Shown here: positions 1-47,097 of the stretch, piece after piece
Layout of the letters: each line of letters starts with the position of its first letter
Numbering within the stretch: the stretch's first letter is position 1
DNA from: Candidatus Micrarchaeota archaeon
Lineage (GTDB): Archaea > Micrarchaeota > Micrarchaeia > Anstonellales > Bilamarchaeaceae
Reading direction: 5' to 3'
Assembly (NCBI GenBank): GCA_029557835.1
Contig: JAKQHW010000011.1
Coordinates: forward strand, 1 to 51,414
DNA length: 51,414 bases
Made by a program: the position numbers and the translations under genes
The notes under the pieces: model-generated
Told to the model about the DNA's origin: nothing
Seen by the model: the letters and a program-made list of their open reading frames with translations, nothing else
Database searches by the model: none

Positions 1-468
1 ACCATAAGGTCCGCGGTTCCGCTGCGCAGGTTTTGTAGCCGCCTCGGGGAGTATGCGGGGCAGAGGATTGCGCTGGTGTTCGGGAGGGAAGGGATAGGGC
101 TGAATGAGAAGGAGATAGGGGTGTGCGACATCCTGGTGCACGCGGAAGCGGACCGGAGGTATCCCATCCTCAACATAAGCCATGCGATGGCGGTGGTGCT
201 CTATTCGGTGAGGGCGGGGGGCGGAAAGTCCGGGAAATGCGCGGAGGAGAGAATCAGGGGGGCGGAAAGGCGGGCGCTCACGCATATGTTTAATAAGATG
301 GCGGGGAGATATAGGGTGCGTAATCCGGGGAGGTGCCGGGCGGCCTTTGCAAGGGTGCTCGGAAGGGCGAACCCGACGATGGCGGAGGGGCAGTGCCTTC
401 TCAACGTCTTCCGGCTTGTGCTAGAAGAGCTGGGTGGTAAGGATGGCAAGGAAAATCACGCTCAATGA
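1..468 (+). CDS. SpoU/TrmH-superfamily RNA 2'-O-methyltransferase, C-terminal part (TrmJ-like); 5' end outside window
   Basis: Frame 1 is open from the window edge. ALVFGREGIGLNEKEI...YPILNISHAMAVVLY matches SpoU motifs 2-3. The helical C-terminal extension resembles the TrmJ tail. Confidence 0.6.
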   Translation, partial: TIRSAVPLRRFCSRLGEYAGQRIALVFGREGIGLNEKEIGVCDILVHAEADRRYPILNISHAMAVVLYSVRAGGGKSGKCAEERIRGAERRALTHMFNKMAGRYRVRNPGRCRAAFARVLGRANPTMAEGQCLLNVFRLVLEELGGKDGKENHAQ

Positions 469-1651
469 AATGATATCCCTCACTTTCGACGCGAATCCGC
501 AGATAAGGAAGCAGGCCGCGGCAGAGCTGGCGAGGTACGACGACCCGGCGGCGAATTTCGCGCTCCTGGAGCTCACATACGACAAGGATTCCAGCGTGAG
601 CTCGCTTGCGAGGAAGCTTCTGGACGACAGGAAGGCGTCCCAGCCCGAGCTGATGTCCTTCGCCGAGGTCTTCAGGAACGGGGCGGAGGAAAAAGAGGAG
701 GGGAAGAAGAGCGTGGAGGAGGAGCGCAAGGCGGAGACCGCAAGGGAGAAGATGCTGAGGCCGATCCAGCAGCTCATGGAGAGGAAGCTGGGGAAGGAGA
801 AGGCCAACGCGATGAGAAGCAGGATGATGCCCACGATAGAGAAGATATATATGAAAACCATGGGCAAGAACGGCCAGGTGAACGAGCAGAAGGGGAAGGC
901 CGTGCAGGAGATGCTTACCGATTACCTGGACGTGATCTCAGGGGCGGAGACGCATGTGATAACGGATGAGGGGGAGGGGAAGGCTCCCAGCCCGGAGATG
1001 CCGGATGGGGGGCCGGAGGAAGCGCCCGGGGAGGAGCTGCAGCCGGAACCGCATGGGGAGCTGGGGCTGCAGAGCGTAGGGACCAAGGAGCTGGACATGG
1101 GCAGGGCGGCGATAGAGCTGGAGGAGATTTCAAGCGAGCCTGAGACCCCGGATGCAATTGAGGCGCAGGAGGTGAGGGAAAGCAGGGAAGAGAGGGGGAG
1201 CGTTTTCCGGCTTGCGTACGAAACGATGATGGCGTCCGAAGGCGACGAGGACGTAATGAAGAGGGCGATGCAAAACATGCTCAGGAGCGCGGAGGAGGAG
1301 ATAAAGCTCGCGTTCAGGGTGGCCAAGGAAAGGCACAAGCAGATGAACATCACCCACCTCACGGAGCTGAAAAGCGGCATGAGGAACATAACCACCGTGC
1401 CCCTCGCCGTGAAGGCGGTGGAGCAGAGGGAGTACCAGAAGAGCAAGAAGGTGAAGGACAACTTCACGAGGCTGGTTGTGGCGGACGATGAGGGGAGCGA
1501 AGGGGTAATCTACTTATTCGACAACAGGGGCGCCCTGGTGAGGGAGGGGATGCGCATAAAGATAGAGAAGGGGTACGCGAAGACCTTCGGGTTCTCGGGC
1601 GAGACGGCGCTTTCCATAACGAAGAAGGGGAGCGCTCATATAATCCTTTGA
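443..1651 (+). CDS. hypothetical protein: N-terminal HEAT-like repeat, acidic low-complexity centre, C-terminal OB-fold-like domain
   Basis: The ORF spans 434..1651 and the first ATG is at 443. NPQIRKQAAAELARYDDPAA..LLELTYDKDSSV is HEAT-like. The C-terminus TRLVVADDEGSEGVIYLFDNRGALVREGMRIKIEKGY looks like an RPA-type OB fold. I recognise no family. Confidence 0.5.
   Translation: MARKITLNEMISLTFDANPQIRKQAAAELARYDDPAANFALLELTYDKDSSVSSLARKLLDDRKASQPELMSFAEVFRNGAEEKEEGKKSVEEERKAETAREKMLRPIQQLMERKLGKEKANAMRSRMMPTIEKIYMKTMGKNGQVNEQKGKAVQEMLTDYLDVISGAETHVITDEGEGKAPSPEMPDGGPEEAPGEELQPEPHGELGLQSVGTKELDMGRAAIELEEISSEPETPDAIEAQEVRESREERGSVFRLAYETMMASEGDEDVMKRAMQNMLRSAEEEIKLAFRVAKERHKQMNITHLTELKSGMRNITTVPLAVKAVEQREYQKSKKVKDNFTRLVVADDEGSEGVIYLFDNRGALVREGMRIKIEKGYAKTFGFSGETALSITKKGSAHIIL
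1627..1651 (+). repeat. direct repeat copy 1 (25 nt, GGGGAGCGCTCATATAATCCTTTGA)
   Basis: It matches 1814-1838 at 23 of 25 positions. It covers the last codons and stop of the 443..1651 gene. Confidence 0.85.
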
Positions 1652-1660
1652 TGGTTCAAA

Positions 1661-1813
1661 GGAATGTGCTAAGTGCGCGCAAAGGGCTACAAAGCGAAGT
1701 GGAGGGGGGTCAGAATGACCGGTAAAAATGGGGGGGTTCGGTCGACGCCCCGTTGCAGGGAATTGCAGCGAAGAGGGGTGGAGAGCGAATTAGCTTCCCC
1801 CGCGTTTTCTCGA
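1661..1813 (+). other. tRNA-less copy (X) of the tRNA-proximal noncoding module family
   Basis: AGTGCGCGCAAAGGGCTACAAAGCGAAGTGGA matches 35863-35894 at 25 of 32 positions. It is followed by a G-run, the mini-hairpin GGTCA-GAA-TGACC (1708-1720), TAAAAAT, a G7 run (1730-1736), a ~60-nt insert and a C5 run (1797-1801). No credible ORF is present. Confidence 0.45.
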
Positions 1814-1838
1814 GGGGAGCGCTCACATAATCCTCTGA
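1814..1838 (+). repeat. direct repeat copy 2 (GGGGAGCGCTCACATAATCCTCTGA)
   Basis: It pairs with 1627-1651. On the minus strand it encodes the last codons and stop (..SAQRIM*) of the 1823..2422 gene. Confidence 0.85.
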
Positions 1839-2422
1839 GCGCTTATGCAGTAGAGGATTTCGAAAAAGAACGGCCTCTGCTCAAGGATTGATGCCGAGAA
1901 GCCCTGCGATTGGAGGGAGGAAAGCGTTTTTTCGGGCGAGTTGAGCGAGCTCTGGATGAGGATTAGCGTGCCGCGGGGCGCAAGGTGGGCCTGGAATTCG
2001 TTTAGGAAACGGCCCAGGGTTTCCCTTCCGTCCTCCCCGCCGTCGAATGCGCGGTTGAGGGGGCCGCTTATGCGCTCCTCGGCGGAGGTCGGGAGATAGG
2101 GCGGGTTGAACAGGATTGCGTCGAATTTCCCCCTTATGTTGGAGAAAAGGTCAGATTGGACGAACAGGATGTTCCGGGCGCCGTTGGATTCCGCGTTCTT
2201 CCTGGCGCACTCGAGGGCCGTGGGGCTTGTGTCCGTTGCGAAGACCGGGTTTGAAGGGTTGGTTTTTGCATTGAGGATTGCGGCGAGGCCCGAGCCGGTG
2301 CCGATTTCGAGTATTTTGCCCTTTAAATTGCGGGAGTGGAAGGCCAGCAGCTCGGAATCCTCCGCAGGCTCGTATACATCGGAAGTGACGGATACGGAAA
2401 CACCCAGGAACTCATGGCTCAT
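1823..2422 (-). CDS. HemK/Mtq2-family N5-glutamine (release factor) methyltransferase
   Basis: It has the SAM motif ILEIGTGSGL and the NPPY motif (ILFNPPYLP). The ~200 aa size is typical of archaeal HemK-related methylases. Its start overlaps the stop of the upstream gene (TAATG). Confidence 0.75.
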   Translation of the reverse strand: MSHEFLGVSVSVTSDVYEPAEDSELLAFHSRNLKGKILEIGTGSGLAAILNAKTNPSNPVFATDTSPTALECARKNAESNGARNILFVQSDLFSNIRGKFDAILFNPPYLPTSAEERISGPLNRAFDGGEDGRETLGRFLNEFQAHLAPRGTLILIQSSLNSPEKTLSSLQSQGFSASILEQRPFFFEILYCISAQRIM

Positions 2423-7716: not shown

Positions 7717-7757
7717 CCCTTGTTTTTAATTCTTCAGTAATTTATTATCTATAGCCG

Positions 7758-7853
7758 AGGGGTTATGGTTACCCTAAAAGGGAAGGGGGCGATGAGGTCC
7801 CGGTGGACTTCTTCGGACATCGCAGCAGCGATGCGGAGGTCCCCCTTCCTCCT
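7758..7853 (+). other. tRNA-proximal noncoding module, copy A (closing helix 7781-7789/7841-7849 with two internal hairpins)
   Basis: The sequence runs GGGGTTATGGTTACCCTAAAAG, then GGAAGGGGG...CCCCCTTCC. Internal hairpins are GAGGTCC-CGGT-GGACTTC (7794-7811) and CATCGC-AGCA-GCGATG (7818-7833). It ends 4 nt before tRNA-Val. Confidence 0.5.
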
Positions 7854-7925
7854 GGACCCGTGGTCCAATGGTCAAGACGCCAGCCTTACACGCTGGAGAC
7901 CCTGGTTCGATTCCGGGCGGGTCCA
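7854..7925 (+). tRNA. tRNA-Val (anticodon UAC)
   Basis: I folded the cloverleaf by hand. The acceptor is GGACCCG/CGGGTCC, the anticodon arm is CCAGC-CTTACAC-GCTGG and the T arm is CCTGG-TTCGATT-CCGGG. It is 72 nt with no encoded CCA. Confidence 0.9.
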
Positions 7926-7926
7926 C

Positions 7927-8721
7927 ATGGTGAGAATAAGCGAGGGTGAGATGGAGCTGAGGAAGGAGATTGCCTTGCACGTGGGGCAGGGCAACGCATT
8001 GCTCTCATCCATAAGGTTCTCGGAGCCGTTGCCTGCGGAGGAGGCGGAGAAACTGAAGAAGGCGTTCGCGCACTTTGATGAGGCGGAGGAGCTTAGCGAA
8101 GGGATGGAGGTTGGCGGGGCGAGGCTTTCCTCAGTTGGCGAATACGCGGACTATACGGAAATGTATGCGGGATTGTTTGGCAAATGCCTCTGGGGGGTCC
8201 CTTTCCAGGTGCGGGAGGAGGTGGTGAACGTGCTGGACTCCTATGTGGCGGATTCTTCTGAGAAGATGGAGCTGCTGTTGCGGGTCCGGGCCCTTGCCGG
8301 GAGGCAGGACGTTGGCCCGAAAGTGAGGCTGTACCTGAAATTCAAATTGTACAATGACTTTTACGAATACCTTTTCACGAGGCACAAGATGCTGCTGCTC
8401 ACGTCCAGGGATTTCGGCAGGATGGACAAGGACGGCACCGTGGGGGCTTTCCTGAACAGGGTGAAGTCCGAATGGGCGGACGAGAAATGGGTTCCGCAGT
8501 TCTCCTCGGTGTGGGGCGGCATGTACAGGAATTCCGCGGCGCATTTTGCGTTCAGGGTGGCGGAAGGCGCGATTGAGATAGAGAGGAGCGGGGAAAAGGT
8601 TCCGGAGGCGGAGCTGGACAAGTTGCTGAACAGGCTCATCATGCTTTCGATCGCTTTCGACTCGGTGGTGTACAGGCAGAAGAAGGAAGTCGTTTTCGAG
8701 AAGTACGGGGTGAGGTTATGA
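7927..8721 (+). CDS. hypothetical protein (alpha-helical, no recognised domain)
   Basis: I trimmed ORF 7765..8721 to the first ATG after the tRNA (7927; alternative 7951). The stop overlaps the next gene's start as ATGA. Confidence 0.5.
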   Translation: MVRISEGEMELRKEIALHVGQGNALLSSIRFSEPLPAEEAEKLKKAFAHFDEAEELSEGMEVGGARLSSVGEYADYTEMYAGLFGKCLWGVPFQVREEVVNVLDSYVADSSEKMELLLRVRALAGRQDVGPKVRLYLKFKLYNDFYEYLFTRHKMLLLTSRDFGRMDKDGTVGAFLNRVKSEWADEKWVPQFSSVWGGMYRNSAAHFAFRVAEGAIEIERSGEKVPEAELDKLLNRLIMLSIAFDSVVYRQKKEVVFEKYGVRL

Positions 8722-14572: not shown

Positions 14573-14580
14573 AAAAACGC

Positions 14581-14618
14581 AAGGAGGGGGCAACTGTTTT
14601 TTCCCTATCCCCCTCCTT
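14581..14618 (+). terminator. G5/C5 hairpin with T6 in the loop plus a TCATTTTC tail, downstream of tRNA-Lys
   Basis: AAGGAGGGGG-(18 nt incl. TTTTTT)-CCCCCTCCTT is a 10-bp stem, followed by TCATTTTCC. It contains direct-repeat copy 2 (14588-14602). Confidence 0.4.
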
Positions 14619-14691
14619 TCATTTTCCACGCTCCTTTCTGATTTCCTCCCCCAACCAAATAAAAATAAACCCTCCTTCCGAATAATAACCC

Positions 14692-17900: not shown

Positions 17901-19151
17901 ATGGGAAAAATGAAGTTGCAGTGCCTCGGCGCGGGGCAGGAGGTCGGAAGGAGCTGCTTTGTCCTGGAGACGGACCAGAAGGTGATGCTGGACTGCGGGC
18001 TCAAGATTTACGAGGTGGGCGAAGGCAGGGACATGTTCCCGCTCCCGTTCAGGGGAAGGCTGGACGCAATCGTACTTGGGCACGCGCATTTCGACCATTC
18101 CGGTTACCTCCCTTCCATGTTCGCGCATGGGGGGCCGGACTGGTTCTCCACGCCCCCGACCGCGGAGATAACCAACCTGCTCTGGGCGGATTCGATGAAG
18201 ATAATGGGCGACAGGTCCCCGTACACGGAGGCGGAGATCGCGAAGGCGAACAGGAAATGGGTGGGGCTGGAGTACGGGAAGAGGCTGCACCTGGGAAAGA
18301 CGGCCTTCCGGCTGCACGACGCGGGGCACATACTAGGGGCCGCGATGGTGGAGGCGGAGCACGGGGGGAGGAGGTTCGTTTATACGGGCGACTTCAAGAT
18401 GGAAGGGAGCAGGATGCACGCCGGCGCGGAGCCGGTGAAGGATGTGGACGTGCTCGTGATCGAGAGCACATACAGCAGCAGGGAGCACCCGGAGAGGAAG
18501 GGGCTGGAGAGGAAGCTCGCGGAGGATGTTGCGGAAGTGATAGACTCTGGGGGCAACGCGCTTTTCCCGGCTTTCGCGGTGGGGAGGACGCAGGAGCTGA
18601 TAAGCATAATACGCGCACACAACAAGGGCGTCCCTATATTCGTGGACGGGATGGGCAAGGAGGTCACAAGGATGTGCATGAGGAACCCGGGCTACATAAG
18701 GGACGCGGAGGAGTTCGGGGAGCACGCGGAGAGCGCGGTATTCGTGCAGGGGAGGGAGGACAGGGTGGACGCGACCTCCATGCCATCTGTGATAATAAGC
18801 ACGGCAGGCATGCTGCAGGGCGGGCCCGCGCTGCAGTACATGCTCAACCTGATGCCCGGCTCAAAGATGTATTTCACAGGATACAACGTGGAGGGGACGA
18901 ACGGGTGGAGGATGATGAAGGAGAGCAGGATCCTCCTGGAAGGGAACCTGCTCGAGGTGGACACGCCCTGGGAGTATTACGACTTCTCGGCGCACGCCGG
19001 GAGGGCGGACCTGCTTGAATTCATACGCAAGGCAGGGCCGGAGAAGATAGTGCTCAACCACGGGGACGGGATTCCGGCCTTCGCGGAGGAGCTGCGCGGG
19101 CAGGGATACGAGGTCCACGCCCCAAAGAACGGCGACACCATCGAGCTATGA
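17901..19151 (+). CDS. metallo-beta-lactamase/beta-CASP ribonuclease (aCPSF2-like)
   Basis: It has CLGAGQEVGRSCF, the HxHxDH motif (GHAHFDHSG) and beta-CASP motifs. It is 416 aa with no KH domains. Confidence 0.8.
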   Translation: MGKMKLQCLGAGQEVGRSCFVLETDQKVMLDCGLKIYEVGEGRDMFPLPFRGRLDAIVLGHAHFDHSGYLPSMFAHGGPDWFSTPPTAEITNLLWADSMKIMGDRSPYTEAEIAKANRKWVGLEYGKRLHLGKTAFRLHDAGHILGAAMVEAEHGGRRFVYTGDFKMEGSRMHAGAEPVKDVDVLVIESTYSSREHPERKGLERKLAEDVAEVIDSGGNALFPAFAVGRTQELISIIRAHNKGVPIFVDGMGKEVTRMCMRNPGYIRDAEEFGEHAESAVFVQGREDRVDATSMPSVIISTAGMLQGGPALQYMLNLMPGSKMYFTGYNVEGTNGWRMMKESRILLEGNLLEVDTPWEYYDFSAHAGRADLLEFIRKAGPEKIVLNHGDGIPAFAEELRGQGYEVHAPKNGDTIEL

Positions 19152-27351: not shown

Positions 27352-27450
27352 GGGTCCGTAAGGTAACCTGGATAGCCTACAAGGCTTCGAATGCCTTCTC
27401 CTGAATGCAGGAGCAACCTTGCAGTGTGGGTTCAAATCCCGCCGGGCCCG
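27352..27450 (+). tRNA. tRNA-Arg (anticodon UCG) with ~25-nt intron at the canonical 37/38 position
   Basis: The acceptor is GGGTCCG/CGGGCCC. The anticodon arm is CAAGG-CTTCGA[intron ATGCCTTCTCCTGAATGCAGGAGCA]A-CCTTG. The T arm is GTGGG-TTCAAAT-CCCGC. The intron carries the hairpin CTCCTG-AATG-CAGGAG. Confidence 0.85.
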
Positions 27451-28709: not shown

Positions 28710-30605
28710 TTGCAACAGAAAGAAATAGAGAAGACCGTATCTGAGATAATGCCCGCGGAGTGCGGGATTGCCAAGGTGGAGGCCGAAGGCCTGAATATAG
28801 TAATATATGTGAGGAACATCGAGGCGTTCTACCGCAACGACCAGCTCATCAAGCAGCTTGCCGGAGCGGTCAGGAAGAAAGTCAGTGTAAGGGTGGACCA
28901 GTCCCGGCTCATGGACATGGAGAGGGCAAGGAAAGAGATTGAGTCCCTCGTGCCAAAGGAGGCGGTGATAAGCTCCATCACGTTCGCATCAACCTTCTCC
29001 GAGGTGTTCATAGAGGCGCTCAAGCCCGGGCTCGTGATAGGCAAAGGGGGCGTGGTGCTCAAGGAGATAATAACAAGGACGGGCTGGTCGCCCGTGGTCC
29101 TGAGGAGCCCGACCATACCCTCCTCGACCATACGGGGGATAAGGAAGGGATACATGGCCGAGGCGGAGGACAGGAAGAAGTTCCTGCTCTCGCTCGGGAA
29201 GAAGATATGCCAGCCCTCGCCCTCGAGCGAATGGGTGCGGGTGTCCATGCTCGGCGCGTTCAGGGAGGTGGGCCGGAGCTGCATGCTGGTGCAGACCCCC
29301 CACAGCAGGTTGCTCATTGACGTGGGGATAAACCCGGTGATAGGGGAGGCCACCAAGGCCTACCCATACCTCAACTTCATGGGGTTCCCGCTGGAAGAGC
29401 TGGACGCCGTGATAATCAGCCACGGCCACATAGACCACATGGGCTTCCTGCCCTATCTGTACGCTTATGGATACGACGGCCCGGTGTACTGCACCCCCCC
29501 GACCAGGGAGCTGATGGCGCTGCTGCAGACCGATTCCGTGGACCTCATGAAGAAATCCCTCGGGGTGGACCCGCCATACGGGAAGAAGGACATCCAGAAG
29601 GAGCTCAGGCGGGTGGTCCCGGTGGAGTACGGGGAAGTGGTGGACATAACCCCGGAGATAAAGATGACGCTCTACAACGCCGGGCACATAATCGGGAGCG
29701 CGATGGTCCACCTCCACATAGGGGAGGGGCTCCACAACCTTGTGTACAGCGGGGACATGAAATTCGGGTACACCCGGCTCTTCGAGCCGGCCAACACCCG
29801 CTTCCCGCGCATAGAGACGCTCTTCCTGGAAAGCACATACGGGGCCAAGAACGACATCACCTCGAACCGGAGGGACATGGAAGACAGGCTCGTGAACATA
29901 ATCAAGGAGACCGCGGCGAAGGGGGGAAAGGTGCTCATACCGGTGTTCGCGGTTGGGAGGAGCCAGGAGATAATGCTCGTGCTGGAGGACTATGTGAGGC
30001 GGGACCCGAACTTCAACGTCCCGGTCTACATAGACGGCATGGTGATGGAGACCTCGGCCATCCACACCGCGTATCCGGAATACCTGCGCGAGAGCATAGA
30101 GAGGAGGATACTCTCCAACAACAGCCCGTTTGAGTCCCCGATGCTCAAGGTGGCCAAGGGGACGGACAAGGAGAGCATAGTGAACGGCGAGCCGGCGGTC
30201 ATACTTGCGCCGTCAGGAATGCTAAACGGCGGGCCTTCTGTGGAATACCTCAGGCTCATGGCCGAGGACGAGAGGAACACGCTCGTTTTCGTGGGCTACC
30301 AGAGCCCGCTTTCCCTAGGGCACAAGATACAGAGGGGCATGAAGGAGATACCGGTCACCGGAGACGACGGAAGGGCAAAGATAATGAACATAAGGATGCG
30401 CATCGAGACCGTGGAGGGCTTCTCCGGCCACAGCGACAGGCACCAGCTCATGGCATTCCTCAGCAACCTAAAGCCGGTTCCGGAGCGCGTCTTCACGATG
30501 CACGGGGACTGGAACAAGGCGGACGACCTCGCGAGGGGGGCAGCTTCCCTGCTCAGGAGGGAGGCGAGGGCGCCCCTGAACCTAGAGGCGATTAGGCTCA
30601 AATGA
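28710..30605 (+). CDS. aCPSF1/FttA: KH-KH + metallo-beta-lactamase + beta-CASP ribonuclease (transcription termination factor)
   Basis: The 631-aa protein has N-terminal KH domains (GLVIGKGGVVLKEI), an HxHxDH motif (SHGHIDHMG) and beta-CASP motifs. It lies next to psmB, as in many archaea. Confidence 0.9.
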   Translation: MQQKEIEKTVSEIMPAECGIAKVEAEGLNIVIYVRNIEAFYRNDQLIKQLAGAVRKKVSVRVDQSRLMDMERARKEIESLVPKEAVISSITFASTFSEVFIEALKPGLVIGKGGVVLKEIITRTGWSPVVLRSPTIPSSTIRGIRKGYMAEAEDRKKFLLSLGKKICQPSPSSEWVRVSMLGAFREVGRSCMLVQTPHSRLLIDVGINPVIGEATKAYPYLNFMGFPLEELDAVIISHGHIDHMGFLPYLYAYGYDGPVYCTPPTRELMALLQTDSVDLMKKSLGVDPPYGKKDIQKELRRVVPVEYGEVVDITPEIKMTLYNAGHIIGSAMVHLHIGEGLHNLVYSGDMKFGYTRLFEPANTRFPRIETLFLESTYGAKNDITSNRRDMEDRLVNIIKETAAKGGKVLIPVFAVGRSQEIMLVLEDYVRRDPNFNVPVYIDGMVMETSAIHTAYPEYLRESIERRILSNNSPFESPMLKVAKGTDKESIVNGEPAVILAPSGMLNGGPSVEYLRLMAEDERNTLVFVGYQSPLSLGHKIQRGMKEIPVTGDDGRAKIMNIRMRIETVEGFSGHSDRHQLMAFLSNLKPVPERVFTMHGDWNKADDLARGAASLLRREARAPLNLEAIRLK

Positions 30606-35808: not shown

Positions 35809-35855
35809 ACCAGCTCCCATTTTAATAAGATGGTGGGGGCAAATAATAAACACGC

Positions 35856-35997
35856 GAAATGAGTGCGTGCAAAGAGTTGCACGGTGAAGTGGAAAGGGGG
35901 TATGATTACCCTAAAGAGAGGGGGGATGGTGGAGTTCCGCAGAACTTCGCCAGACATCGCCGCAGCGATGCTGAAGGCGTTCCCCCTTCTTCTTGGA
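35856..35997 (+). other. tRNA-proximal noncoding module, copy B
   Basis: AGTGCGTGCAAAG..GAAGTGGA is shared with copy X. It continues GGGGGTATGATTACCCTAAAGAGA, a G6 run, hairpins GGAGTTC-CGCA-GAACTTC (35931-35948) and CATCGC-CGCA-GCGATG (35955-35970), then CCCCCTTCTTCT. It ends ~4 nt before tRNA-Pro. Confidence 0.5.
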
Positions 35998-36070
35998 GGG
36001 GTCGTGAGCTAACCTGGTATGCTGCCAGCTTTGGGAGCTGGTTGTCAGAGTTCAAATCTCTGCGACCCCA
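35998..36070 (+). tRNA. tRNA-Pro (anticodon UGG)
   Basis: The acceptor is GGGGTCG/CGACCCC, the anticodon arm is CCAGC-TTTGGGA-GCTGG and the T arm is CAGAG-TTCAAAT-CTCTG. Confidence 0.9.
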
Positions 36071-36154: not shown

Positions 36155-36278
36155 TGGAAGAGAAAATAATAGGGGCGGAAGTCCTTAAAAACAGTTTCCC
36201 CACTGAAATAGTATAACGTTCTGATTATTACCTTCGTTATCCACGGGGGGAGGGTCAGGATGAACCCCTGCAATTAAT

Positions 36279-36325
36279 GGGGGGTTATGAGTACGCTAGA
36301 GAGAAGGGGGTGCTCCCCCTTCCTC
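36279..36325 (+). other. tRNA-proximal noncoding module, minimal copy C (tetraloop hairpin)
   Basis: GGGGGGTTATGAGTACGCTAGAGAG is followed by AAGGGGG-TGCT-CCCCCTT. It ends 6-8 nt before tRNA-Met/Ile2. Confidence 0.4.
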
Positions 36326-36330
36326 TTGCA

Positions 36331-36471
36331 GCCGAGGTAGCTCAGCCTGGCTGGAGCGCCAGACTCATAAGGCGCGGTTCTTATGAGTACTGAGGCGGAC
36401 TTTCCGCCTATGACATACAAAGGCGTATCTGGGAGATCTGGAGGCCGGGGGTTCAAATCCCCCCCTCGGCA
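36331..36471 (+). tRNA. tRNA with anticodon CAU (elongator Met or Ile2) containing a ~66-nt intron (36370-36435)
   Basis: The acceptor is GCCGAGG/CCTCGGC. The anticodon arm is CCAGA-CTCATA[intron]A-TCTGG. The T arm is GGGGG-TTCAAAT-CCCCC. The intron contains CTTATGAG, complementary to the anticodon loop, which is expected for BHB formation. It is not initiator-like (G1, no GGG/CCC anticodon stem). Confidence 0.85.
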
Positions 36472-46601: not shown

Positions 46602-47097
46602 GTTCTCACCAGAGTTATCCTGTTGCTGGATAATCCTATGGCAGGATAACTTATTAAATATACCGGCTTAACAATAACTTAACATAACTCACGTCGGTGA
46701 GTGGATTATTGTTAAGTATTGTTAAATTAATGATGGTCGCCTATTTTATGCATCTAACTGAACAAAAATCCCAATTTCTTTCATTATACTGAAGGCTTTA
46801 GGATACGCGGGCGCTTCGGCCTTCTGTGAATCGTTAAATCTCATTACGTAAAGTTTAAGCTGGATTTATTTGACGAAAACGCCAGGAATGCAATTCTTCC
46901 GTCTTAAAATATTAAGCGGTTTATGATTTAATGCAATTTAATGTAAATGTCGAACCGTCATTAGTAAGTCGCTCCGTTTTAATCATTTACCCTTCGCTCA
47001 GGCGGAAAAGGAGAGAGAATGGAAGCTGTAAAACCTGATTTTGCAGACGTAGTGGCTGGAAACCCGAAACTGGAAACTGGAAACAAAATCAATGATT
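46602..47097. other. ~500-bp AT-rich gene-free region with palindromes and CTGGAAAC repeats
   Basis: GC is visibly far below the flanks (e.g. 21 of 60 in 46681-46740). No ORF of 60 aa or more lies within 46602-46978. Inverted repeats are 46614-22/46642-50 and 46667-77/46706-16, with an inner hairpin at 46687-46702. CTGGAAAC occurs at 47056-63, 47070-77 and 47077-84. Confidence 0.6.

Follow-up and report, generated by a model that had tools for sequence, protein, structure and literature searches.

Rickettsia palindromic elements (RPEs), said to have been described by Ogata and colleagues in 2000, are reportedly hairpin-forming repeats of 100-150 bp that occur in frame within proteins and in or near RNA genes of a reduced-genome symbiont. 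We know of no RPE that is fused to a tRNA 5' end at 0-3 nt or flanked by recoded gene-end duplications. REP/BIME elements with RAYT and the PATEs derived from IS200/IS605 are moved by single-strand mobilisation of the HUH Y1 type. Integrative elements use att sites in tRNA or protein genes and bring a replacement 3' end for their target gene. Among archaea, Pyrobaculum calidifontis carries about 15 copies of MITE-like C/D-box small RNA (sRNA) elements at gene boundaries, sometimes cotranscribed with tRNAs (PMC6009581), and C/D sRNA-tRNA cotranscripts are reported from N. equitans (PMC3491384). Here we analysed a stretch of 51,414 nucleotides from a Candidatus Micrarchaeota archaeon of Ca. Bilamarchaeaceae, class Micrarchaeia (contig JAKQHW010000011.1, assembly GCA_029557835.1; hereafter the window), in which an earlier note had pointed to a structured module joined to the 5' end of the tRNA-Val(UAC) gene. 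We consider it reasonably probable that this module (copy A) is an expanded copy of a small, non-autonomous, mobile two-hairpin repeat of the RPE/REP/PATE kind, which is found in Micrarchaeota (Ca. Bilamarchaeaceae and relatives) and here now forms the leader of tRNA-Val.

The gene order DUF655 followed by tRNA-Val(UAC) is kept at three loci of relatives (L075, L079 and L076; L-numbers are labels of the ~8-kb loci around repeat matches), whose DUF655 proteins are 85%, 83% and 73% identical. All three sites are empty, and a TATA-like box is centred ~35 nt upstream of position +1 of the tRNA. The window and L028 have the box and the next ~24 nt in common; between this stretch and the tRNA lies the element, with a length of 95 nt in the window and of 52 nt in L028. 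Alignment with the element-less L075 and the short-form L028 places tRNA positions 1-2 on the final two G residues of copy A. Judged from these alignments, copy A was inserted between a pre-existing promoter box and +1 of tRNA-Val(UAC), within 0-2 nt of +1. Since it would lie downstream of the presumed transcription start, copy A should be transcribed as a leader of ~105 nt that is cut by RNase P; the ribonucleoprotein form of this enzyme is reported to be near-universal in archaea, and the protein-only HARP to be absent from DPANN (PMC6380272). Because close relatives do without it, the element should be dispensable for tRNA-Val maturation. One option of the earlier note, a co-transcribed leader, thus appears essentially right, as the element-less orthologs place the module downstream of a conserved tRNA promoter box. 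For a dedicated processing signal, an insulator or a terminator, which it had also considered, we found no evidence.

The helices and hairpins that had been described for copy A were all found at their positions when the sequence was re-read, and the minimum-free-energy RNA fold is a three-way junction with a modest z-score (-1.7 to -2.2). Hairpin 1 is followed by an A-rich linker, TAAAAG. The closing helix of hairpin 2 is formed by GGAAGGGGG (7781-7789) with CCCCCTTCC (7841-7849) and can be extended by a G7780-U7850 wobble. It encloses hairpin a, GAGGTCC-CGGT-GGACTTC (7794-7811), and hairpin b, CATCGC-AGCA-GCGATG (7818-7833).

A 318-aa open reading frame (ORF; 7765-8721) starts within the module, runs across tRNA-Val and ends in the downstream gene, and it was annotated by the gene caller of one public assembly (L002 1482-2438). 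The call is an annotation artefact that arises because of the element, and the true start of the gene downstream of tRNA-Val is probably near 7936.

The repeat is not confined to this locus. A covariance model (CM) was built from the repeat family and run on the window with filters on and off. It returned exactly four copies, with 66.2, 60.7, 53.0 and 39.6 bits (next best 13.7 bits), and these are the four members that had been listed before, here called A to D; no other match exceeded 14 bits. The layout that had been noticed at the tRNA-Pro, tRNA-CAU and tRNA-less sites is borne out by conserved blocks common to all three. An exact-pattern scan of one genome per prokaryotic species gave 37 loci, 36 of them from eight Micrarchaeota metagenome-assembled genomes (MAGs) and the remaining one a chance match in an alphaproteobacterium; at least 10 copies lie on a single 1.03-Mb contig (JBAZFC010000001.1). 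A metagenome scan added 34 further contigs with the repeat, and with the CM we count 71 copies in distinct contexts. Further copies, which the earlier note had proposed to seek with a CM, thus exist outside the window, and what had been taken for a four-member family is a real structured family but a much larger one, present in at least eight Micrarchaeota (Bilamarchaeaceae-like) MAGs and many metagenome contigs. Rfam 15 returned no family for copies A (7757-7853), B, C and D, either in the gathering scan or at E<=5. Both scans agree with the previous statement that the module matches no tRNA, C/D, H/ACA, RNase P or SRP RNA. The literature was searched for the repeat sequence and held no match. 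A viral or plasmid carrier was rejected, as an IMG/VR scan gave a chance match alone.

The core unit of ~53 nt consists of hairpin 1, a 12-bp hairpin 2 with one bulged C, and the end CTCTTGG. In the RNA consensus the 5' part reads (AT/GC/TC)GGGGGG-UUAUGAKUACCC for hairpin 1, then UA, and the 3' part AAGAGAAGGGGG-loop-CCCCCUUC(C)UCUU for hairpin 2, then GG. The common DNA form is composed of a subfamily dinucleotide (AT, GC or TC), GGGGGGTTATGA(T/G)TACCCTA(A/G)AGAGAAGGGGG, a 3-6-nt loop and CCCCCTTC(C)TCTTGG. Copy C of the window represents this common form; copy A, once regarded as the founding copy, is derived, with a 48-nt expansion of the ~53-nt core. Variants carry the two-hairpin expansion of 48 nt in the loop of hairpin 2 (A and B), a 5' extension (B and D), or both. 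The extension of B and D reads GCGUAAGGAGYRCG...GAAGUGG, with an A/T-rich peak ~19-25 nt upstream; in copy B it spans GCGAAAUGAGUGCG...GAAGUGGA and contains the hairpin CGUGCAA/UUGCACG. Copy B ends 1 nt before tRNA-Pro(UGG) (35998-36070), and copy C ends 1 nt before an intron-containing tRNA(CAU) (36331-36471). Several tRNAs are preceded by longer composites that contain an additional hairpin and a GCAAUUGAU linker, and a remnant of this module is found upstream of copy C at 36245-36276 (cf. L035, L048, L042 and L054). The subfamilies have linked diagnostic bases, and there are also truncated, nested and composite copies (truncated or nested: L003, L054 and L060).

Table 1. Positions of the repeat copies, their parts and the associated features, in the window unless a locus label is given
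Feature	Position	Strand	Details and support
Copy A, expanded element (core + 48-nt insert) fused to tRNA-Val(UAC)	7757..7855	+	CM match 53 bits, E=1e-12
Hairpin 1 of copy A, GGGGTTATGGTTACCC	7759..7774	+	GGGU/ACCC stem plus A-U pair, UGG loop; sequence, fold
Hairpin 2 of copy A, enclosing the insert	7780..7850	+	closing helix 7780-7789 / 7841-7850; fold, pair counts
Lineage-specific insert of copy A in hairpin-2 loop, with hairpins a and b	7790..7840	+	also in window copy B, L004, L024, L020, L037, L072
tRNA-Val(UAC)	7854..7926	+	ARAGORN and Rfam
A/T-rich TATA-like box TTTTTAATTC, putative promoter of the leader-tRNA-Val transcript	7723..7732	+	conserved in L028, L075, L076, L079
Copy B, long form: 5' extension + core with insert	35854..35996	+	CM; fold z-score -4.3
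Copy C, minimal 53-nt form, ATG GGGGGTTATGAGTACGCTAGAGAGAAGGGGG TGCT CCCCCTTCCTCTTGC	36277..36329	+	CM 66 bits
Copy D, divergent D-type long form, no tRNA, between two convergent genes	1652..1813	+	CM 39.6 bits
Left copy of 25-nt direct repeat, GGGGAGCGCTCAYATAATCCTYTGA	1627..1651	+	last codons and stop of ORF 434-1651
Right copy of 25-nt direct repeat	1814..1838	+	stop (1823-1825) and last codons of convergent methyltransferase gene 1823-2422 (minus)
Duplicated gene 3' ends around the element	L015 3825-3876, L035 7387-7444, L018 6623-6674, L014 7698-7749		also L037, L052, L058, L072
Cassette between intact tRNA-Thr and duplicated 3' fragment, long-type element at right border	L038 5734-6309		cargo: 183-aa GNAT acetyltransferase
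Cassette between intact tRNA-Thr and duplicated 3' fragment, long-type element at right border	L008 3366-3647		cargo: 81-aa Cys-rich ORF, no Pfam match

Conservation of the fold was examined separately for the expanded form and for the core. In seven expanded copies from different organisms, 93% of the cells are paired, compared to at most 62% with slid partners; four pairs show compensatory double changes, and the observed score was reached in 0 of 500 shuffles. The changes within the insert include CAUCGC/GCGAUG to CUUCAC/GUGAAG and U-A to C-G. By these pair counts, the three-way junction of the expanded form is well supported. Helix 2 of the core has 98% of its cells paired with only two double changes among 46 distinct sequences, and covariation is barely testable in the ~51-nt core because it is almost invariant. 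The fold is supported by the divergent subfamilies, since these keep both hairpins through different base pairs. When D-type copies were compared (window copy D, L035 7387-7444, L039 519-573 and L047 792-843), hairpin 1 was found to be GGUCA/UGACC (window copy D) or GGGUC/GACCC (L039b, L047) instead of the usual GGGUA/UACCC, and hairpin 2 to pair AAAAA..GGGGG with CCCCC..UUUUU, or GGGGAGGG with CCCUCCCC. The lengths of the G-run and the C-run vary in concert across copies.

A structured unit of this kind might be a small-RNA gene, with the long form (A/T box, 5' extension and core, ~100-150 nt) as a multi-copy trans-acting sRNA that forms a dicistron with the tRNA and is released by RNase P, and the short copies as retro- or pseudo-copies. 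Long forms fold well (see copy B in Table 1), the A/T-rich peak lies ~19-25 nt upstream of their GCGUAAGGAG start, many of them stand before tRNAs, and the 3' end of the element is exactly where RNase P cleavage would leave it. Moreover, archaeal sRNA-tRNA dicistrons and MITE-like sRNA elements have been reported (PMC6009581). We nevertheless judge a small-RNA gene to be quite improbable, because the repeat lacks a guide-like variable region, the canonical architecture of C/D or H/ACA RNAs and a match in Rfam, and because inserted long copies take in the A/T box upstream as well as DNA that is not conserved, which speaks against an intermediate RNA beginning at the transcription start. The Pyrobaculum elements resemble the repeat in being small structured archaeal units in multiple copies at gene boundaries, and the expanded form of the repeat has C- and D-box-like motifs. 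However, those elements have flanking inverted repeats, canonical C/D boxes and guides, of which the repeat core has none; the boxes occur only in the optional insert. There, the insert is bordered by C-box-like (UGAUGA/CGAUGA/UGGUGA) and D-box-like (CUGA/CGGA) motifs, CGAUGA and CGGA in copy A, but their spacing does not suit a canonical K-turn and the unpaired nucleotides on the D-box strand are on the wrong strand, which leaves the K-turn-like element of the earlier note speculative. A C/D box sRNA was therefore rejected, as the two hairpins between the box-like motifs are not guides either and Rfam gave no C/D match. Self-cleaving ribozymes (pistol, HDV-like, hammerhead and hatchet) were also rejected; by eye the architecture does not fit, and there is no Rfam match.

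A second site with occupied and empty alleles lies in a gene for a SpoU-family methylase. It is occupied in L075 (1168-1221), L013 (4506-4559), L046 and L066 and empty in the window (181-300). The insertion is in frame and adds 18 codons (MGGY(D/E)YP(K/R)EKGG.P.SSW), whereas the window and L024 do not have the peptide at this place. An in-frame copy in a conserved gene with an empty allele in relatives is the pattern expected of an RPE-like element. In L024, a 100-nt expanded copy (1858-1957) lies in frame and forms a C-terminal extension. The element has one open sense frame, the insert amounts to exactly 16 codons, and 23 of the 67 copies have an ATG start. A small protein gene (MGGYDYPKEKGG...) was rejected, since the frame is shifted in loop-length variants and interrupted by a stop in the D-type, and an ATG is often missing from tRNA-linked copies. 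By analogy with RPEs, the open frame would reflect a filter on copies that survive in or next to ORFs and not a gene.

The likeness to RPEs extends further. Both are short, hairpin-forming and without a transposase of their own, both are inserted in frame into proteins with one frame open so that the host protein gains a peptide, and both are found next to or in RNA genes and in intergenic DNA of a reduced-genome symbiont host. In contrast, there is no sequence relation, the core measures ~53 nt compared to 100-150 bp, and the repeat is archaeal (DPANN). When the simple insertions at tRNA-Val and SpoU were compared with the empty sites, no target duplication was seen. A classical MITE was rejected for two reasons: the ends, (AT)GGGGGGTTATGA... 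and ...CCTTCCTCTTGG, are not complementary, the inverted repeats being internal hairpins only, and there is no target-site duplication of fixed length, with none at the tRNA-Val or SpoU insertions and other duplications ranging from 11 to ~80 nt. As in PATEs, subterminal hairpins occur without terminal inverted repeats or target-site duplication, hairpin 1 being 2-4 nt from the 5' end and hairpin 2 being 2 nt from the 3' end. Because of these features, together with the precise 3' end and the strand bias, the anatomy would fit single-strand mobilisation of the IS200/IS605 (PATE) or REP/RAYT type better than cut-and-paste MITEs. Besides, REP/BIME and PATEs share with the repeat imperfect hairpins near the ends and a location at gene ends. 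Unlike them, the repeat has no conserved 5' target tetra- or pentanucleotide, no GTAG-type head and no inverted REPIN pairs, and no TnpA/RAYT partner was present among the few ORFs scanned beside its copies.

By crude ORF calling, 46 of 48 copies have the sense orientation relative to one or more of their neighbouring genes; such calling is unreliable in the G-rich coding DNA found here, and the sign of the local GC skew is a better guide to the coding strand. On contig JBAZFC010000001.1, the plus strand carries all five copies at 102-328 kb and the minus strand all five at 386-727 kb. This switch tracks the local GC skew, which is +0.15 to +0.24 in the first group and -0.08 to -0.18 in the second (L021, L019, L033 and L014 against L003, L013, L006 and L018). 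The joint switch of strand and skew suggests large co-oriented gene domains or replichores, and the strand pattern fits either a need for sense orientation or a replication-strand bias.

About one third of the copies (24 of 71) abut a tRNA on the same strand, all of them at -3 to +3 nt, and none is found at 4-30 nt. The occupied tRNAs are Ser-GCU, Ser-UGA, Pro-UGG/CGG, Val-UAC, Gly-GCC/UCC, Thr-CGU, Asn-GUU, Met/CAU and one intron-bearing tRNA. Three of the seven tRNAs in the window have the element, and the rest have ordinary A/T boxes 27-35 nt upstream. This enrichment exceeds what random insertion can explain, so there must be either targeting or retention. Viability can account for part of the narrow spacing, if only a few nucleotides before +1 tolerate an insertion in a short leader. 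Distant duplicates of tRNAs were looked for upstream of the tRNA-linked copies, but none were found. About two thirds of the copies lie at the ends or starts of protein genes, some of them in frame within coding sequence. The proposal of a duplicating tRNA-associated element was essentially right, except that the element is not specific to tRNAs.

Retention would be expected if the element, although mobile in origin, had been kept before particular tRNAs because a structured cis-acting leader helps the host; the benefit might lie in 5'-end protection, read-through insulation, recruitment of L7Ae via the C/D-like insert or positioning of RNase P. In line with such an exapted leader, orthologous tRNA loci are occupied in up to seven organisms or contigs (e.g. 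Ser-GCU), the narrow spacing holds in 24 of 24 cases, the copies are biased to the sense orientation, the core is nearly invariant while the flanking genes diverge, and C-/D-box-like motifs border the insert. But close relatives mature the same tRNA-Val without the element, most copies are not beside tRNAs, and a short leader may be the only viable insertion window near a tRNA. In addition, different subtypes occupy orthologous loci and one copy is decaying (L036 4168-4214, 45.6 bits), which indicates turnover and not strict vertical conservation. Overall, exaptation as a leader seems unlikely to us, though with some appreciable chance of being correct.

At around a dozen copies, the 3' end of the upstream gene or tRNA is present twice, as direct repeats on either side of the element, the right one beginning 0-2 nt after it. 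The length of the duplication varies from 11 to ~80 nt. In eight clean protein cases, 48 codon differences between the duplicated ends are synonymous and 17 non-synonymous, and both ends are seen to retain a stop codon when the flanking sequences are inspected. Examples are VRRYPEPVIVIY followed by the stop in L015 and the PIP-box end of FEN1 in L035. The G+C content at third codon positions (GC3) of the left in-frame copy is below that of the gene body, while the right copy is host-like (L035, L018, L014 and L015); the bias is reversed in L052. In L033, the DNA that adjoins the element on its left is similar to the end of the gene in other species. Around copy D, the left and right 25-nt repeats differ at two positions, both synonymous. 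As the right repeat holds the stop and last codons of the methyltransferase gene, selection acts on both copies. In the relative L075 this site is empty and the two genes abut, and a plain 25-bp duplication is enough to account for copy D. A diversity-generating retroelement (VR/TR) was rejected, because the differences between duplicated ends are not adenine-specific and mostly synonymous. For the duplications other than that of copy D, the simplest reading of the flanking sequences would be that gene end, spacer and element arrived together as a patch from another lineage, with the joint exactly at the 3' end of the element.

The 3' ends of tRNA-Thr genes (GGU, CGU and UGU) are likewise duplicated to the right of long-type copies, with 0-530 nt of cargo between tRNA and element. 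These loci resemble integrative elements in that the left gene end looks foreign (synonymous differences, lower GC3) and the right one host-like, and in that small cargo genes lie between the duplicated tRNA-Thr ends. They differ in having inserts of 60-600 bp without an integrase, a different gene at each locus and a crossover at the 3' end of the repeat and not in a shared core.

The element might also act as DNA, either as a folded hairpin recognised by a site-specific recombinase, like attC or an att arm, or as a portable promoter with a TAAAGAGA box ~30 nt before +1 of the tRNA. The right junctions of all duplications fall 0-2 nt past the 3' end of the element, the element forms the right border of the cassette-like inserts at duplicated tRNA-Thr ends (the GNAT gene of L038 and the 81-aa ORF of L008), hairpin 2 shares with attC a bulged base and a variable terminal loop, and in minimal copies TAAAGAGA is centred ~30-33 nt before +1. 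Against this, no recombinase was seen among the few neighbouring ORFs scanned, the copies are dispersed singly and not in arrays, and simple insertions have no duplicated core. Furthermore, the 48-nt insert would destroy the promoter spacing in A and B and yet keeps its compensatory pairs. We thus regard a DNA-level site as very improbable. An integron attC was rejected, since the copies are single and dispersed and have no R-box consensus (RYYYAAC/GTTRRRY), as was a TATA promoter as the main role of TAAAGAGA, which is a poor TATA box with a better conserved box upstream of it.

Several points weigh against a mobile repeat. No transposase, integrase or reverse transcriptase was found among the handful of neighbouring ORFs scanned, and the sole multi-copy protein family near the elements is an Lrp/AsnC regulator and not a transposase. 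The 5' flanks contain no conserved target motif, their endings (TGAT, AAAT, AATC or GCGC) following the element subfamily and not a common target; therefore the defining feature of IS200/IS605 elements is absent. The Ser-GCU, Val-UAC, Pro-UGG, Gly-GCC and Thr-CGU loci carry the element in several species, and such repeated tRNA loci, with one third of the copies just before +1, could equally indicate host benefit or targeting. The gene-end duplications with their mostly synonymous differences fit no simple transposition model. Finally, transcription of the leader and its removal by RNase P are inferred steps.

Taken together, we still favour a mobile two-hairpin repeat. Its hairpins would be conserved because they are needed by a mobility or recombination machinery that acts on single-stranded DNA or RNA, and the element would be tolerated only in sense orientation at safe places, such as short tRNA leaders, gene boundaries and surface-tolerant coding positions. 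Copy A would then be transcribed within the structured 5' leader of ~105 nt and removed by RNase P. It is also conceivable, though rather unlikely, that the repeat marks the end of an undescribed archaeal mobility or recombination system that joins DNA at the repeat 3' end, brings a recoded gene 3' end from another lineage and so heals its target, targets tRNA 5' ends and tRNA-Thr 3' ends, and may carry small cargo. Such homing-like, integrase-less cassettes would move between Micrarchaeota lineages.

Other features were noted near the tRNAs and RNA-related genes of the window. Two intron-containing tRNA genes (27352-27450 and 36331-36471) were missed by ARAGORN in default mode and found by Rfam. 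Downstream of tRNA-Val GAC (minus), at 47056-47084, about four copies of the heptamer CTGGAAA, GTTTCCAG on the tRNA strand, are arranged in tandem. The same repeats (GGAAAC/GTTTCC) follow many tRNAs and fill tRNA introns in related loci (L005, L011, L015, L030, L035, L037, L038 and L048); they could represent either another repeat family or a signal for termination. Directly after tRNA-Lys, a G/C-rich inverted repeat, GGAGGGGG...CCCCCTCC, encloses a T6 run (14573-14620). It resembles a terminator and is unrelated to the two-hairpin repeat. The window further encodes the termination factor FttA/aCPSF1 (KH and beta-CASP; 28710-30605) and a shorter beta-CASP/RMMBL paralog (17901-19151), both of which bear on RNA 3'-end formation in this organism.

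More probably than not, then, the module before tRNA-Val is to be understood not as a member of a tRNA-specific processing family of four, but as one copy of a clade-wide mobile repeat. The genomes of DPANN archaea are tiny and thought to be strongly streamlined, yet in this clade a structured repeat is tolerated and has spread into tRNA leaders, operon junctions and coding sequence. Gene callers are already misled by this unannotated family, as the 318-aa ORF through module and tRNA illustrates, and the presence or absence of the repeat at a site provides markers for strain tracking. The occupied tRNA loci also offer a natural experiment on how RNase P handles structured leaders of ~50-150 nt. 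The recoded gene-end duplications, in turn, point to frequent exchange of DNA between lineages or to a joining mechanism that is undescribed in archaea.

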